Positions 2,278 through 7,937 of a DNA stretch of 64,000 nucleotides are shown in pieces. Position 1 is the first letter of the stretch. Every line of letters begins with the position of its first letter. Source of the DNA: Escherichia phage vB_Eco_F26; sequence record OP870145.1; one strand, 5' to 3'. Position numbers and translations under genes: made by a program. The notes under the pieces are model-generated. The model saw nothing but the letters and a program-made list of their open reading frames with translations, was not told the origin of the DNA and did not search any database.

Positions 2278-2580
2278 TTATTTACCTTTAATTACTTTAG
2301 CTGCTTCGATAGCCGCTTGCTGAAGGTCATCCATAGACATACCGAATTTAGAAGCAAAGTTATCAATTTTCTTTTCGACAGCATTCAAAGGCTTGGCCTG
2401 TTTACCTTCATTAGCGCCAGGAAGAGCGAGAATACGCTCTTTGTCAATATAAAGGCTTACAAGTTTCTTACGGTCTTTATCGGACAAATCATGAAATGAA
2501 TGGGCCTTTTTATTTATAGCGGCTTCTAATTTACCTGCACTCACTCGCGCTTCAGTAATAAATTCTTGATATGTTTTCAT
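2278..2580 (-). CDS. internal protein (IP) family, 100 aa, with capsid-targeting sequence
   Basis: N-terminus MKTYQEFITEA is the T-even IP capsid-targeting sequence ending in an I-x-E prohead-protease site; size and position next to e resemble T4 ipII. Confidence 0.75.
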   Translation of the reverse strand: MKTYQEFITEARVSAGKLEAAINKKAHSFHDLSDKDRKKLVSLYIDKERILALPGANEGKQAKPLNAVEKKIDNFASKFGMSMDDLQQAAIEAAKVIKGK

Positions 2581-2634
2581 ATGTTTCCTTTAAATATTTT
2601 AATTAATAATTTATCTATTCAAGTAACTGTGAAT

Positions 2635-2664
2635 ATACTATCACAATTCTAGGAGAAAGTAAAC
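2635..2664 (-). promoter_or_regulatory. T4 early-type promoter for IP gene (GTTTAC -35 / TAGTAT -10)
   Basis: Minus-strand motif about 55 nt upstream of ATG 2580. Confidence 0.45.
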
Positions 2665-2668
2665 AACT

Positions 2669-3199
<531 letters not shown>

Positions 3200-3655
3200 T
3201 TAAAAGAGGCTGTTCATTATTCGGTAAAGTGAAGGACCCATCACGTATTGCCACTGAGTACGAGGAATAAGAGCAAAAGCGTCCATCTCTGGAATCATAA
3301 CACCATCTTTATTTTCAAAATAAGACTCACAATAGCAATTTCTGAACATCTCATGCTCTACTGGAATCGTATAATAAAATAACTGTAAGTCTTTATTACT
3401 AGAATATTTAAATACACCTAGGTCTTCTAGAAGGTCTGGATTATAATTGCTAAAACCGGTCTCTTCTAAACATTCTCTTCGTGCTGCATCTAGTGCACTT
3501 AAATCAGAATTTTCTACACGGCCCTTTGGAATATCCCAGCGATGTGCCATCATTCCAGGCTTACGAGAACCAGTAACCCGACCCATAAATAAATCTTTAT
3601 CTTCTGTCATGAAGATAATACCAGCTGATAATGTTTTCATTTTAATTTCCTGCAA
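3200..3655 (-). CDS. nudE: Nudix hydrolase NudE (e.1)
   Basis: 151 aa; Nudix box-like GRVENSDLSALDAARRECLEETGF; position next to e as in T4. Confidence 0.85.
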   Translation of the reverse strand: MQEIKMKTLSAGIIFMTEDKDLFMGRVTGSRKPGMMAHRWDIPKGRVENSDLSALDAARRECLEETGFSNYNPDLLEDLGVFKYSSNKDLQLFYYTIPVEHEMFRNCYCESYFENKDGVMIPEMDAFALIPRTQWQYVMGPSLYRIMNSLF

Positions 3656-3999
3656 TCACTCACAAACTCTTTCATTGATTCATTTTCAATATAAGACATG
3701 TAGCTATTATATTCTTTTAATTGTATTTTGTAATCCTTTTTTCTTTGCCAATTTATTTTAAAATTATCATAATGAAAATATAGCATGGTACCAAAGAATG
3801 AAAATAATGAAATAATTTTAGTATAGCGAAGTTCACTCCAAACTTCTATTATATTTACTGTGCCGTCGATGTTTAAAATAAGACAGTCAATTAATAATCC
3901 AAAAAGACTACCCGCAAGAGCTGCAGCCAACGCCACAGCAAAAATTAAAAATGACTCAGGAAGCGAATATTTGACTTTATTTAGTTTTGGCTTTTGCAT
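3637..3999 (-). CDS. small membrane protein (120 aa)
   Basis: ORF with hydrophobic segment LIFAVALAAALAGSLFGLLIDCLIL. Confidence 0.55.
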   Translation of the reverse strand: MQKPKLNKVKYSLPESFLIFAVALAAALAGSLFGLLIDCLILNIDGTVNIIEVWSELRYTKIISLFSFFGTMLYFHYDNFKINWQRKKDYKIQLKEYNSYMSYIENESMKEFVSDCRKLK

Positions 4000-4394
4000 C
4001 GTGATTCCTTAACAAATTTCATAATTTCATCAAATTCATACGCAGCAAGTTTAAGCTGATGTTCCTTTTTAATCTTTTTACACTGTGCTTTCCAATCACG
4101 TACGCGTTTACGATAATGCCTTCCTTGATACCAGTATCCTACCCAATTTACAGGTACTAATAAAAGTGGAACTATTAATGGAAGAATTAGCATTAACACA
4201 AGTATTTCGCCAGAATCAATATCAGTCATAACATCTAAAACACCTCCAATAATCAATAGAATTACAAATGATATGAGTATAACAGGACCTATTAATACAT
4301 CAGTAGGAATTAGCTGGCGCTTTGATTCATACTTCAAAGGTTTACTTGGAAGGTATAGTGATGGCTTTGACATATTCTCTACATTCCTTAACAA
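3981..4394 (-). CDS. membrane protein (about 130 aa; start may be ATG at 4373)
   Basis: ORF with two hydrophobic helices (VLIGPVILISFVILLIIGGVL, ILVLMLILPLIVPLLLVPV). Confidence 0.55.
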   Translation of the reverse strand: MLRNVENMSKPSLYLPSKPLKYESKRQLIPTDVLIGPVILISFVILLIIGGVLDVMTDIDSGEILVLMLILPLIVPLLLVPVNWVGYWYQGRHYRKRVRDWKAQCKKIKKEHQLKLAAYEFDEIMKFVKESRCKSQN

Positions 4395-4950
4395 ATTTTT
4401 CTAGTAATAAATCACTTTCAAAATTAGGATTTTCCACTAATTTATCAAAAAGATCATCAACAATATTCAAGATATTTCTTTTACTAAGAATACGTTTATT
4501 TTCATGCTTCGTTTCAGAATCAACTATAAGAGTAAAGAAATATTTCTTTCCCTGAAATTTTACTGTAGTATCAATATAGAATAAATTTGACTTTTGTAAG
4601 TTACGTTTAAACCATGCGTCACTTAAACTATAAACACCGAGATAATCAAAATCGTCGTTTAAATAACAAACTGTCCATTCAGGAGAAATGAAATCAGTAA
4701 ATTCAACATCAAAATCACATGTCAATAAATGAATTGATTCAATATTGTTAATAAGTATTCCAGGACGTATTAAAGACTTTTTACCTCTGGAAAATCTTCC
4801 AGAAAGACTTTCATCAGTTTCATATGAAGAACCCCAATAATAATTACGTCCTTCTGCCATACGTTTAAGAGCATTTAGTAATTGATCTGGAACATCAACC
4901 TGTCTTTGGAACTCTTCAAACATTGAATTGAAATCACTTTGCATTTTCAT
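4342..4950 (-). CDS. hypothetical protein (202 aa)
   Basis: Long ORF in AT-rich DNA, protein-like composition. Confidence 0.6.
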   Translation of the reverse strand: MKMQSDFNSMFEEFQRQVDVPDQLLNALKRMAEGRNYYWGSSYETDESLSGRFSRGKKSLIRPGILINNIESIHLLTCDFDVEFTDFISPEWTVCYLNDDFDYLGVYSLSDAWFKRNLQKSNLFYIDTTVKFQGKKYFFTLIVDSETKHENKRILSKRNILNIVDDLFDKLVENPNFESDLLLEKFVKECREYVKAITIPSK

Positions 4951-4970
4951 TCCTATTTACTCCAAGTAAT

Positions 4971-4986
4971 AGGGGCCGAAGCCCCT
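4971..4986 (-). terminator. GC hairpin GGGGC-CGAA-GCCCC (tetraloop), putative terminator or processing signal
   Basis: Perfect 5-bp GC stem with CGAA loop directly after the stop of the 4992..5585 gene; identical hairpin at 48098..48111. Confidence 0.4.
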
Positions 4987-4991
4987 TATCA

Positions 4992-5585
4992 TTATTTCAG
5001 AGAATTAATGTATTCCTGAACATCGGCAGAAGTAGTTTCAACCCCAGAAATATTACCGTTAAAGGTTTCAACTCGAGCAAGGGTATCTTCAATATCAACC
5101 TTAGTCAGTGCTGCAATTTCAACTACATCATCAGCAGTACTAATTCCAAGGGCATTTGCTGCACGAGTTTCACGGATATATTCCAATTTAACTGCAAGTT
5201 CTTGGCGAGCATCATCCAATTCAACTACTTTCTTGGCGATTTCAATTCGCATTTCAGCATACCCATCAGCTTTAGTAGTCAACTGTTCAGCTGTTCGACG
5301 ATATAGCAAGCCGAGTTTAGCATGCATTGTTACATCTTGACCTTCGGAAAGAAGCTTGCGAATTTCACGCTCTTTTGATTCAGCCTGTTTATTCTTTTCA
5401 ATAACAAGTTCACGAATACGTTTTTCTTCATTAATAGATTTAACAGAAGCAGTTTTTAGGTCTTTAATTTTATCAAGTAATTTTGCTGCTGCAGCAGTGT
5501 ACTGTTCTTCAACAGATAGATTTTTAGCCATAGCAGAACCAAGTTTAGTGCGAATAAAATCAACAATTTTCTTCAGTGTGTTCAT
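4992..5585 (-). CDS. coiled-coil protein (197 aa), possibly PspA/IM30-like
   Basis: ORF; N-terminal amphipathic segment followed by heptad-rich helical sequence; family assignment is an unverified impression. Confidence 0.6.
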
Positions 5586-5629
5586 AGTATTTCCTTAGGT
5601 TAATTAAGATTTAAAATCCATGAGAGTAT

Positions 5630-5806
5630 TATACTCCGGATAGTTTGTAAACTATTTCAACATCGCCTTTTGCTGCTTTATAACCTTCAGCCCAAGATAC
5701 AACCGAGTTTTTATCTGAAGATTCAAATTCTGGCATTGGACTTTCATCAATGTTCACACAGTATGTTTCTTCATTTTCGTCAAACCAAATAGTTAAAGTA
5801 GTCATT
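5630..5806 (-). CDS. small hypothetical protein (58 aa), below ORF-track cutoff
   Basis: ATG at 5806 preceded by GGAGAAATAA SD; translates to MTTLTIWFDENEETYCVNIDESPMPEFESSDKNSVVSWAEGYKAAKGDVEIVYKLSGV. Confidence 0.4.
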
Positions 5807-5873
5807 TATTTCTCCGCTTCTGTGATTGTTTTGATAAGTCTATAATAACACCGTCCTTGGTGTTTGTACACAC

Positions 5874-6137
5874 TTATTTCATATTATTGAAATATTCTTC
5901 TGCGATTTCATCGTTATCGTGGTAAACTTTAGAAGACAGTTTAACATAACCTTCAGCAGTGAACATATTAATCACAACTTTTACAGTATACCACTGACCG
6001 TCTTCATTACCCATTACTGCGTAAGTTTCAAACATCGGATGGTCAGGACCGATAACTTTAATATCATTCACTGTACGACCGAAATCTTCTGAAACGCATT
6101 TCATAAAGAAGTTGAACAGTTCGCCGTAATTATCCAT
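5874..6137 (-). CDS. hypothetical small protein (87 aa from ATG; ORF track gives 5874..6149 from TTG)
   Basis: ATG at 6137 with GGAG SD 7 nt upstream; first 8 codons lie inside the 350-bp tandem repeat. Confidence 0.55.
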   Translation of the reverse strand: MDNYGELFNFFMKCVSEDFGRTVNDIKVIGPDHPMFETYAVMGNEDGQWYTVKVVINMFTAEGYVKLSSKVYHDNDEIAEEYFNNMK

Positions 6138-6180
6138 TTCATTCTCCAAGTTGTTTTCTGTATCAGTAGTTGATAGTTGT

Positions 6181-6210
6181 ATAGTACCACGGAAGAACAG
6201 AGATGTAAAC
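6181..6210 (-). promoter_or_regulatory. T4 early-type promoter (GTTTAC -35 / TACTAT -10 with A/T-rich upstream region), repeat copy 1
   Basis: Minus strand TTTTCACAAAACTGTTTACATCTCTGTTCTTCCGTGGTACTAT upstream of ATG 6137. Confidence 0.5.
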
Positions 6211-6341
6211 AGTTTTGTGAAAAATTTTTTAAAAAGTTTTAGGGAATTCTAGGGAAGGGAGGGGCAATTAAAGGATAGGATAATATATTATAAAGGGTAG
6301 AAACTAAATGATGCCTAGAGAGGTCCAGAAAGGCCTAGATG

Positions 6342-6368
6342 CCAAAAAGCCCTATCATTTAGATAGGG
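6342..6368 (-). terminator. intrinsic terminator (hairpin CCCTATC-taaat-GATAGGG + T-run), repeat copy 1
   Basis: Minus strand CCCTATCTAAATGATAGGGCTTTTTGG. Confidence 0.5.
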
Positions 6369-6530
6369 ATTTAAAATTATTTATCTAGTTTAGTTATTAT
6401 AGCTTCTACGGCAGCTTTTAGCTTAGATGCGGTGTTAATACGATTTTTAATTTCAGTATACGCGAACAGTTCGCCGTAATTATCCATTTCATTCTCCAAG
6501 TTGTTTTCTGTATCAGTAGTTGATAGTTGT

Positions 6531-6560
6531 ATAGTACCACGGAAGAACAGAGATGTAAAC
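6531..6560 (-). promoter_or_regulatory. T4 early-type promoter, repeat copy 2
   Basis: Duplicate of 6181..6210. Confidence 0.5.
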
Positions 6561-6691
6561 AGTTTTGTGAAAAATTTTTTAAAAAGTTTTAGGGAATTCT
6601 AGGGAAGGGAGGGGCAATTAAAGGATAGGATAATATATTATAAAGGGTAGAAACTAAATGATGCCTAGAGAGGTCCAGAAAGGCCTAGATG

Positions 6692-6718
6692 CCAAAAAGC
6701 CCTATCATTTAGATAGGG
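6692..6718 (-). terminator. intrinsic terminator, repeat copy 2, directly after IP gene stop
   Basis: Duplicate of 6342..6368; follows stop codon at 6727. Confidence 0.5.
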
Positions 6719-6726
6719 ATTTAAAA

Positions 6727-7290
6727 TTATTTATCTAGTTTAGTTATTATAGCTTCTACGGCAGCTTTTAGCTTAGATGCGGTGTTAATACGATTTTTAA
6801 TTTCAGTATACGCATCGCCAAGAACATCAAGGCTATCAGAATAAACACTTACACTATTGCGTTCGCTATTTGAAATAGAACCTTTAGTTTTACGATCAAA
6901 ATCGGTGTACACGTCTTGAAGATCACGCGCTGCCTTCTTTGCATCATCCAATGCATCAAGAGCTTTATTCAAAGCATTAACGTATTTTTTAGTGTCGAAC
7001 ATATTCTTAGAAATTTTAGCAGGTGCACGTTCAGGAGTAGCTAATACAGATTTAGGAACCTGAGCGCCAGATGCCAATTTCTTAGAAATTTTGAAAAACG
7101 CTTTATTGAATTTATTTTCTTGACTCATCGTAAAAGAACTATTATCGATGTTGTACATTTCAATAGCTTTAGCTTTCCACTTAAGAAAATCGCCGCGGTC
7201 TTTTGGGTCCAAGTGGAAAAATACTTTAGTAAGATCTGCTTCAGATGGTAATTTTGCTGCTTCGGTTAAAAATTCGGCATAGGTTTTCAT
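6727..7290 (-). CDS. internal protein (IP) family, 187 aa, with capsid-targeting sequence
   Basis: N-terminus MKTYAEFLTEA (CTS with L-x-E protease site); size similar to T4 IPIII. Confidence 0.7.
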   Translation of the reverse strand: MKTYAEFLTEAAKLPSEADLTKVFFHLDPKDRGDFLKWKAKAIEMYNIDNSSFTMSQENKFNKAFFKISKKLASGAQVPKSVLATPERAPAKISKNMFDTKKYVNALNKALDALDDAKKAARDLQDVYTDFDRKTKGSISNSERNSVSVYSDSLDVLGDAYTEIKNRINTASKLKAAVEAIITKLDK

Positions 7291-7380
7291 TTAAAATCCT
7301 TGAAATAATTTATCGGTTGGTTATTAATTATTTATTACTTTGTTATTATCCGTAACAGCATTCTCTATGTGATTCAAACT

Positions 7381-7405
7381 AAAAACCCCAACCTTTCGGT
7401 CGGGG
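7381..7405 (-). terminator. intrinsic terminator (CCCCGACC-GAAAGG-TTGGGG hairpin + T5)
   Basis: Minus strand GCCCCGACCGAAAGGTTGGGGTTTTT directly after the out-of-frame stop at 7415. Confidence 0.55.
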
Positions 7406-7551
7406 CTAAGAATGTTATTTGATTTGTTTAGCAGACCAAATGCGGTCTTTGATGATTTTTTGAATGTCTTCAACATACTCAAGAGAGTGAACATGTGGAT
7501 TATCTTTGAAACTATAAGCACGGGCTAACTTTTGGCCTTCGGTTTTGATTA

Positions 7552-7887
7552 CTAAAAGCTCTTTAAGGATAGCTTCATATTTAGCGATAATTCCTTTAAC
7601 GATATTTTTTCTTGTGCAGCTTTAGGATCTGCTTTAGGAGCAGGTTTACCCGAAGCCTTTGCAAAAGCAGCACCAGTAGCAACTAAACTTTTCCAGGCCA
7701 TACTAACCGCATTTCCTGTAAATCCTTCTGCTTTCATGTCGCGAGCAAACTGGAATCGTGATTCGTCAGAAGCATCTTTATAGGAATATTTACCCGCTGC
7801 AATGGCTGCTTTTGCGACAGCTTGAATTTCGGTGCTAGATGCTTCATTTAACACCGCTTCATTTAAAAATTGAGCATATGATTTCAT
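7552..7887 (-). CDS. internal protein (IP) family with CTS; reading frame as given ends early, likely frameshifted at T6 run 7605..7610
   Basis: N-terminus MKSYAQFLNEA; after the homopolymer a second frame stays open for 62 codons to a stop at 7415 that abuts the terminator. Confidence 0.6.
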   Translation of the reverse strand: MKSYAQFLNEAVLNEASSTEIQAVAKAAIAAGKYSYKDASDESRFQFARDMKAEGFTGNAVSMAWKSLVATGAAFAKASGKPAPKADPKAAQEKISLKELSLNMKLSLKSF

Positions 7888-7937
7888 CTTATTTCCTGTT
7901 TTAATTCGTGGATTTAATATACTACTATATTTATACT

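Follow-up and report, generated by a model that had tools for sequence, protein, structure and literature searches.

PspA is named for its induction by phage infection. For PspA and its relative Vipp1 it is established that the helix alpha0 binds stressed membranes and that the proteins polymerise by way of the helical hairpin and alpha5 into coats that limit proton leakage (PMC8281802, PMC11746142, PMC4556811). A phage counterpart was reported in 2022, when Gp_125 of Salmonella phage SeF3a (Kuttervirus), a member of phrog_1203, was identified by HHpred as a PspA homologue and proposed to be an anti-abortive-infection factor; it was treated as a peculiarity of one Kuttervirus isolate (Ackermannviridae), and neither T4 e.6 nor the occurrence of the gene in more than 1000 Straboviridae genomes was mentioned (PMC9409062). 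Here we analyse the e.6 gene in a 64,000-nt stretch of Escherichia phage vB_Eco_F26 (OP870145.1), referred to as the window, together with its neighbours e.5, e.4 and e.3. By homology and fold, the 197-aa e.6 product very probably belongs to the PspA/IM30/Vipp1 branch of the ESCRT-III superfamily, as a compact and highly diverged protein. It adds a widespread viral member to a superfamily already known and does not amount to a new kind of system.

The e.6 protein was assigned to phrog_1203 with E = 2.8e-87, and its relatives are all phage proteins of ~195-209 aa. By tblastn the gene was found in 1106 phage records, mostly of Straboviridae, with a second group in the Ackermannviridae (e.g. Klebsiella phage May). 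Two profiles were used: A1, from Straboviridae e.6 proteins only, and A2, a broad family alignment of which 41 members were scanned against Pfam. In a search of 1.8 billion representative proteins, A1 recovered the Ackermannviridae-type proteins P0077, P0079 and P0080 over their full length, with E = 1e-19 to 4e-21 (P0080, 1.4e-19; P0077, 3.6e-21). The Straboviridae and Ackermannviridae groups are thus homologous end to end. The search returned 45 clusters, all of ~200 aa and phage-type. Bacterial PspA was absent from these, so there is no continuous HMMER-level sequence bridge from the Straboviridae-only profile.

The connection to PspA was visible once the broader family was considered. Five of the 41 A2 members matched Pfam PF04012 (PspA_IM30), which was the sole Pfam family above threshold for any of them. 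Relative to a gathering threshold of 33.9 bits, P0080 scored 39.0 bits (E = 8.9e-10), P0077 35.1 and P0079 22.3, and residues 6-146 of P0080 and P0077 aligned to model positions 2-143. Two full-length e.6 homologues, both in phrog_1203, therefore exceed the PF04012 threshold, which amounts to transitive membership. When A2 was compared with 177,635 PDB sequences, Vipp1/PspA chains took ranks 1-8 (E = 8.5e-5 to 1.1e-3), with positions 1-146 aligned on 1-147. Comparison of A2 by hhalign with E. coli PspA, represented by an alignment of enterobacterial PspA sequences, scored 33.2 (E = 1.4e-4) over 167-169 columns from residue 1. In controls, 60 column-shuffled PspA alignments scored 12.9 ± 1.8 (maximum 16.6) and the reversed alignment 12.5. 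The match to PspA can therefore not be put down to coiled-coil composition. A phmmer search of the PDB with the intermediate P0080 gave no match, indicating that profiles are needed to make the PspA/Vipp1 link. To judge from these comparisons, the resemblance to PspA is homology, visible via profiles and intermediates, and goes beyond a heptad pattern. A PspA/Vipp1-like e.6 gene is maintained by both T4-like (Straboviridae) and Vi1-like (Ackermannviridae) phages.

An AlphaFold2 (AF2) model of e.6, with a predicted local distance difference test score (pLDDT) of 75.5, was nearly all-helical, with helices at residues 3-22, 25-80 and 86-145, followed by short helices. The predicted layout is alpha0, alpha1 and alpha2-3, as in PspA and Vipp1. 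The N-terminal helix aligns with alpha0 of both proteins; its hydrophobic moment (muH) is 0.78 and its net charge +3 (E. coli PspA alpha0, muH 0.57), with L4/I7/V8/I11/L15/A18/M19 forming the hydrophobic face and K5/K6/R12/K14 the basic one. Within the hairpin, pLDDT was 83-96 over residues 31-100. There is no membrane segment (Kyte-Doolittle 19-residue maximum 1.05). In a Foldseek search of the PDB with the model, ranks 1-9 were all Vipp1 (probability 0.98-1.00, E = 2.6e-3 to 5.4e-2), and archaeal ESCRT-III CdvB2 came after the Vipp1 chains. The Vipp1 chain 6zvs_A superposed on the model at 3.2 Å over 123 columns. The C-terminus can be assigned tentatively to a shortened alpha4/alpha5: global hhalign pairs ARVETF and EYINSLK of e.6 with ARFESF and EQLAQLK of PspA, with a gap of ~21 residues, in a region where pLDDT is only 41-70 and where model confidence is low for residues 150-180. 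Conserved columns in this part are G147, T174, F175, Y192, L196 and K197. As modelled, e.6 retains an amphipathic basic alpha0 and the long hairpin of alpha1 and alpha2-3, with a C-terminal helical stretch that is shorter.

An earlier note on this DNA, made from the letters alone, had described the 197-aa open reading frame (ORF) as mostly helix after an N-terminal amphipathic segment, with a faint PspA/IM30 resemblance. The AF2 model and the muH value agree with the former. The latter was upheld by the family members that pass PF04012, by the ranks of PDB chains with A2 and with Foldseek, and by the hhalign score relative to its controls. The outcome that the note had named as fatal to this idea, profile searches with no PspA signal and confident matches to unrelated T4 proteins, was looked for and was not what the searches returned.

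Several observations weigh against the assignment to PspA/Vipp1. Searched alone against Pfam, e.6 gave no PF04012 match at E ≤ 1 or at E ≤ 10, remaining below the 33.9-bit threshold, and returned weak coiled-coil noise only. A phmmer search of the PDB with e.6 found no match. A1 against the PDB placed Vipp1 chains at ranks 2-4 of four matches, in the same register and with non-significant values (E = 1-2). The assignment rests on intermediates, because T4-type e.6 lacks a significant direct match. The hhalign probability for A2 and PspA was only 52.8%, with a PspA alignment that was shallow (effective number of sequences, Neff, 1.3) because the PspA homologue search gave only relatives of at least 86% identity. 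None of the Foldseek matches reached E ≤ 1e-3, and full-length superpositions gave huge root-mean-square deviations because the conformations differ. In length the protein falls ~25 residues short of PspA, and where alpha0 joins alpha1 it lacks the highly conserved E-D-P-(E/Q)-K: e.6 has K-N-L-S-V-E-E-Q, and the family consensus, KN.S.E.QY, lacks the proline (Pro25) of PspA AEDPQK and Vipp1 AEDPEK. Of the other collections searched with e.6 alone, PADLOC gave no match and NCBIfam only a 13.9-bit match to sll1863.

Among described proteins, Vipp1/IM30 of cyanobacteria and chloroplasts (Synechocystis sll0617; PDB 7o3w, 6zvr, 8qfv) is the best profile and Foldseek match to e.6. The two share an amphipathic alpha0 and the alpha1/alpha2-3 hairpin, and their register agrees from residue 1 onwards. 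Compared with Vipp1 (~267 aa), however, e.6 has no alpha6 extension, its alpha4/alpha5 are shortened, EDPEK is lost and identity is ~15%. Its gene belongs to a virulent phage and is switched on early after infection. E. coli PspA (PDB 4whe; PF04012) belongs to the same superfamily, offers plausible counterparts of the C-terminal motifs in ARFESF and EQLAQLK and, by analogy, would act on the same likely target, the host inner membrane. Its sequence identity to e.6 is ~15%, and it reached only rank 46 in Foldseek and E = 3 in the A2 profile search. Besides its shorter length and the missing Pro25, e.6 differs from it in having no pspF/pspBC-type context. SeF3a Gp_125 and e.6 share a PHROG, PspA homology was found by profile comparison in both, and function is predicted in both; T4-type e.6 has diverged further from PspA than the Ackermannviridae members have. 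With ESCRT-III/CdvB/CHMP proteins there was no sequence-level signal. ESCRT-III proteins lack a PspA-type alpha0 at that position and depend on partner ATPases of the Vps4 type, of which the e.6 locus has none.

No relevant paper, and none linking T4 e.6 to PspA, came up in literature searches on T4 e.6, e.5 and related genes, and the text of a paper on the evolution of the PSP system contains no phage analysis. Among the 65 matches listed from two tblastn searches, e.6 was labelled 'hypothetical protein', 'host specificity protein' or 'tail completion protein'. For the latter two labels (e.g. OL870316, PV102577, MN478483) no support was found here.

The window is from a Tequatrovirus, its region 3200-6200 being 98.4% identical to phage vB_EcoM_G50 and ~96.5% identical to T2. 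ORF identities were taken from the T4 reference annotation and blastp, and the features are collected in Table 1. On the minus strand the order is e.8, a 58-aa ORF, the four-ORF block, nudE and the lysozyme gene e. The four minus-strand ORFs of the earlier note are real and are the orthologues of T4 e.3, e.4, e.5 and e.6. Other details of its description need correction. The block had been placed at the e.2-e.8 position, but it comprises e.3-e.6, and T4 e.2 is absent from the window. It had also been placed downstream of nudE; lying at higher coordinates on the minus strand, it is transcribed before nudE, and e.3-e.6 are upstream of that gene in transcriptional terms. For the second ORF (given as 3981-4394), a TTG at 4394 had been taken as the start. 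The ATG at 4373 is most likely the e.4 start, giving 130 aa, since AAGGA lies 11 nt upstream and the position agrees with T4 e.4.

Table 1. Positions of the e.6 gene, its predicted parts and its neighbours in the window.
Feature	Position	Strand	Description
e.8	5874-6137	(-)	
58-aa ORF	5629-5805	(-)	acidic; phrog_5461
e.6 orthologue	4992-5585	(-)	197 aa; 98.5% identity to T4 e.6
alpha0 equivalent, e.6 residues 2-22	5520-5582	(-)	amphipathic net-basic N-terminal helix, putative membrane-binding
helical hairpin, e.6 residues 25-145	5151-5513	(-)	predicted alpha1 25-80, turn 81-85, alpha2/3 86-145; ESCRT-III-type core
C-terminal short helices, e.6 residues 146-197	4995-5150	(-)	putative shortened alpha4/alpha5
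hairpin GGGGC-UUCG-GCCCC	4971-4986	(-)	tetraloop in 41-nt e.6/e.5 spacer, intercistronic RNA
e.5 orthologue	4342-4950	(-)	202 aa; 97% identity to T4 e.5
16-nt exact direct repeat (AAATTTGTTAAGGAAT, minus strand), copy 1	4383-4398	(-)	KFVKE of e.5 + e.4 Shine-Dalgarno
e.4 orthologue	3981-4373	(-)	130 aa; 89% identity to T4 e.4
16-nt exact direct repeat, copy 2	4004-4019	(-)	KFVKE of e.4 + e.3 Shine-Dalgarno
e.3 orthologue	3637-3999	(-)	120 aa; 89% identity to T4 e.3
nudE	3200-3655	(-)	
lysozyme e	2669-3163	(-)	

No Psp-family match was found by Pfam or NCBIfam for the neighbours e.5, e.4, e.3, nudE, the 58-aa ORF or e.8, and no association of e.6 with PspF, PspB or PspC was found at the locus, the E. 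coli operon having been retrieved for comparison. The RNA hairpin between e.6 and e.5 is stable, with a minimum free energy of -13.1 kcal/mol, yet its z-score is only -1.6 relative to shuffles in a short context. The 58-aa ORF fills the slot of T4 e.7 (111 aa) and is unrelated to it, which points to a gene replacement at that slot.

The ratio of nonsynonymous to synonymous substitutions (dN/dS) between the window and T4 was 0.07 for e.6, 0.35 for e.5, 0.50 for e.4 and 0.30 for e.3 (lysozyme, 0.14). Purifying selection acts on all four ORFs, and they are real genes. From 3198 to 7927, the minus strand has no copy of the T4 late-promoter motif (TATAAATA). In multi-omics data from T4 infection, RNA of e.3, e.4, e.5 and e.6 was early in every case; among the proteins, e.4 and e.5 were early, e.6 middle and e.3 late (PMC9697503, Supplementary Tables S2/S4). 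On these T4 data, e.6 is transcribed early and its protein accumulates in the middle period of infection.

The transmembrane-like helices that the note had seen in the two smallest ORFs of the block were recovered as hydrophobic segments, two each in e.3 and e.4 (Kyte-Doolittle 19-residue maxima 2.47 and 3.04); e.5 has none (0.97). In e.4 (phrog_2604) the segments at residues 31-49 (2.85) and 57-75 (3.04) stand on either side of an acidic 9-residue loop, between a basic N-terminus and a very basic C-terminal tail of ~45 aa ending in FVKESR. From this charge layout and the positive-inside rule, e.4 is predicted to be a two-transmembrane hairpin with both termini inside. The e.3 protein (phrog_2330) has one strong segment (2.47), one weaker segment (~62-77), an e.4-like charge layout and a basic C-terminal tail ending in FVSDCRKLK. 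Both are accordingly predicted to be small proteins of the inner membrane, two-helix hairpins whose basic tails face the cytoplasm. The two proteins are 21% identical over 127 aa, at full length (blastp E = 0.015-0.06 in a tiny database), and are probably old, distant paralogues. Neither has a match in Pfam, NCBIfam or PADLOC, and PHROGs 2330 and 2604 are labelled 'unknown function'. In the same three databases no similarity to Imm, Sp, RI, RIII or holins was found. The superinfection-exclusion or lysis-timing role that had been suggested for them is therefore not supported, their RNA being early, not late, and no family match being found.

The third neighbour, e.5, belongs to phrog_2607 and has a precomputed match to Pfam PF26876 (Phage_T4_Y06P), a family named for the T4 protein itself; no informative match to known families was found. 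Its AF2 model (pLDDT 63.4, predicted template modelling score, pTM, 0.63; shallow alignment) is alpha/beta with two terminal helices, of which the C-terminal one carries FVKECR. We take e.5 to be a predicted soluble alpha/beta protein.

The neighbourhood differs from that of T4 in several places. In T4 (NC_000866), e.2 and a 161-nt spacer are bounded by an imperfect direct repeat of ~18 nt (TGCAGGAAA(A)TTAAA(A)TGA) at ~2476-2496 and ~2958-2978. In the window a single copy of the repeat is found at 3636-3660, and e.2 is absent. The difference reads as a clean repeat-mediated insertion or deletion. Because the e.2 segment is absent from the window, the e.3 stop overlaps an in-frame nudE ATG (ATGA), an arrangement that suggests translational coupling and a 146-aa nudE product. 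The T4 spacer between e.2 and nudE (~2492-2660, minus strand) contains a frameshifted remnant of a further small e.3/e.4-like membrane protein, MDRIGDWILLTILVNIFTAAVLSRDMAYVH followed by a stop, then in another frame WRLRRQQKIFDEKKYAQNLNNFITECRKLK followed by a stop. By the look of these sequences, paralogues form an array at the locus and undergo decay and recombination.

Elsewhere in the window, a perfect 300-nt direct repeat (6114-6413 and 6464-6763, at a spacing of 350 nt) marks a tandem duplication that covers the 5′ end of e.8 and the 3′ end of a 187-aa ORF. It yields a chimeric 40-aa ORF (6377-6499) and doubles a terminator-like hairpin (6350-6368, 6700-6718). The duplication could be a recent event or an assembly artefact. 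Three minus-strand ORFs, at 2278-2580, 6727-7290 and 7552-7887, begin with MKTYQEFITEA, MKTYAEFLTEA and MKSYAQFLNEA, starts that resemble the sequence by which T4 internal proteins are targeted to the capsid. Between e.8 and the tRNA region lie two of these ORFs, at a place where T4 lacks such genes. All three are probably polymorphic internal-protein genes.

The genes e.5, e.4 and e.3 lie directly downstream of e.6 in the same direction of early transcription, and the gene order is conserved in other genera. In Klebsiella phage PWKp16 and Serratia phage X20, where e.6 identity is only 64% and 56%, respectively, the next gene after e.6 is of the e.5 family (phrog_2607, E = 8.6e-16 and 3.5e-6), and a two-transmembrane protein of 121-124 aa comes after that. 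The gene after e.6 in Aeromonas phage 31 encodes 263 aa with FVDYCR at the end, and in an Ackermannviridae phage two membrane proteins come next. The e.5-like, e.4-like and e.3 proteins share a C-terminal motif, seen as FVKECR, FVKESR, FVSDCR, FVKMCR, FIKECR, FIKHCR and FVDYCR. In its strict form, F[VI]xxCR, the motif occurs twice in the 31,907 ORF residues of the window, both times at the e.3-e.6 locus. A partnership of e.6 with these membrane proteins is a conjecture drawn from the conserved gene order and the shared motif. Two findings speak against it. In T4-type phages the motif codons double as the Shine-Dalgarno sequence of the next gene. Moreover, e.3, e.4 and e.5 were detectable in 605-643 records, as against 1106 for e.6, and from this narrower detectable distribution e.6 does not need them.

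A mere Shine-Dalgarno constraint was considered as the reason for KFVKE and was rejected in part: in X20 and PWKp16, where 20-25 nt separate it from the following start codon, the motif is nevertheless conserved. We consider a functional complex of e.6 with e.3, e.4 and e.5 doubtful. It is quite unlikely that the four together form a phage-borne Psp-like membrane-maintenance system. In such a system the F[VI]xxCR helices of e.3, e.4 and e.5 would recruit or regulate a PspA-like polymer at the inner membrane, as PspB/PspC recruit PspA; it would replace the silenced host Psp response and neutralise membrane-depolarising abortive-infection effectors or premature holin triggering. If this were true, an ESCRT-III-type machine would have gone unrecognised in a model phage over 80 years of study.

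A role for e.6 itself can be proposed from the biology of its host. Induction of the host psp operon requires sigma54/PspF transcription, and T4 abolishes host transcription, so the infected host cannot induce the operon. The phage would therefore supply the effector itself, in the form of e.6 made from early transcripts. Its alpha0 would bind the cytoplasmic face of the inner membrane, and its hairpin would polymerise into a membrane-supporting coat that limits proton leakage and sustains the proton-motive force until programmed lysis. Possible insults include genome injection, superinfection, build-up of the phage's own membrane proteins or holin, and membrane-targeting abortive-infection effectors. 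A membrane-binding and membrane-stabilising function, proposed by analogy with PspA and Vipp1, is plausible but tentative. As an overall explanation of the data, membrane protection by a phage-supplied PspA-like protein is the one that we favour, with modest confidence.

The homology itself, whether seen as PF04012 matches or in the comparison of A2 with the PDB, would serve equally well a protein that mimics host PspA. Such a decoy would work by binding partners and not by protecting the membrane: it would titrate PspF, PspB/PspC or a defence that uses or monitors PspA, so that a stress or immune signal of the host falls silent. Mimicry of host factors by phage proteins is common. In Bacillus, a CBASS cyclase is conjugated to host PspA, which links PspA to anti-phage immunity and supports such a role (PMC11153139). 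This link was seen in Bacillus, however, and not in the hosts of e.6 phages, and identity to E. coli PspA is only ~15%. The alpha0-alpha1 junction (EDP, Pro25), which matters for the control of PspF by PspA, is not conserved in e.6; nor would that control be of much relevance, because T4 shuts off host transcription. A decoy is decidedly unlikely. Another view is that e.6 is a generic long coiled-coil or BAR-like protein, such as a scaffold or adaptor, whose likeness to PspA is a by-product of heptad composition and no sign of a related mechanism. Against it, PspA_IM30 alone passed a curated threshold, and Vipp1 chains filled the first eight PDB ranks before every other coiled coil. Four independent comparisons were collinear from residue 1 over ~145-170 residues, controls that preserve composition (shuffles and reversal) scored 12-17 against 33, and an amphipathic alpha0 stands at the expected place. 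We regard this explanation as very unlikely.

A separate alternative concerns the neighbours: e.3 and e.4 may be stand-alone superinfection-exclusion, lysis-timing or anti-defence factors, unrelated to e.6 and adjacent to it by chance in a hyperplastic array of accessory genes. They have changed more quickly than e.6 (identity to T4 89% against 98.5%; dN/dS 0.30-0.50 against 0.07), the gene for a neighbouring membrane protein, e.2, has been gained or lost through repeats, T4 holds a decayed paralogue, and many phages carry e.6 without detectable e.3 or e.4. However, the searches of PADLOC, Pfam and NCBIfam gave neither a family match nor any likeness to Imm, Sp, RI, RIII or holins, and their transcripts are early. 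The order of e.6, e.5 and a two-transmembrane protein and the shared F[VI]xxCR tail also persist in genera where e.6 is only 56-64% identical. Stand-alone roles are on balance unlikely.

With e.6 read as a diverged PspA/Vipp1-type protein, a new label for phrog_1203 and T4 e.6 can be 'PspA/Vipp1-like protein'. The finding adds a viral branch to the ESCRT-III superfamily and, at 197 aa, a minimal natural version that is possibly useful for structural work. The phage-shock picture is reversed if the phage, here T4 and more than 1000 of its sequenced relatives, brings a diverged PspA/Vipp1-type gene of its own. For the biology of these phages, e.6 offers a testable handle on an old question: by what means the inner membrane stays energised until lysis, lysis inhibition and superinfection included, when a virulent phage has abolished host gene expression.

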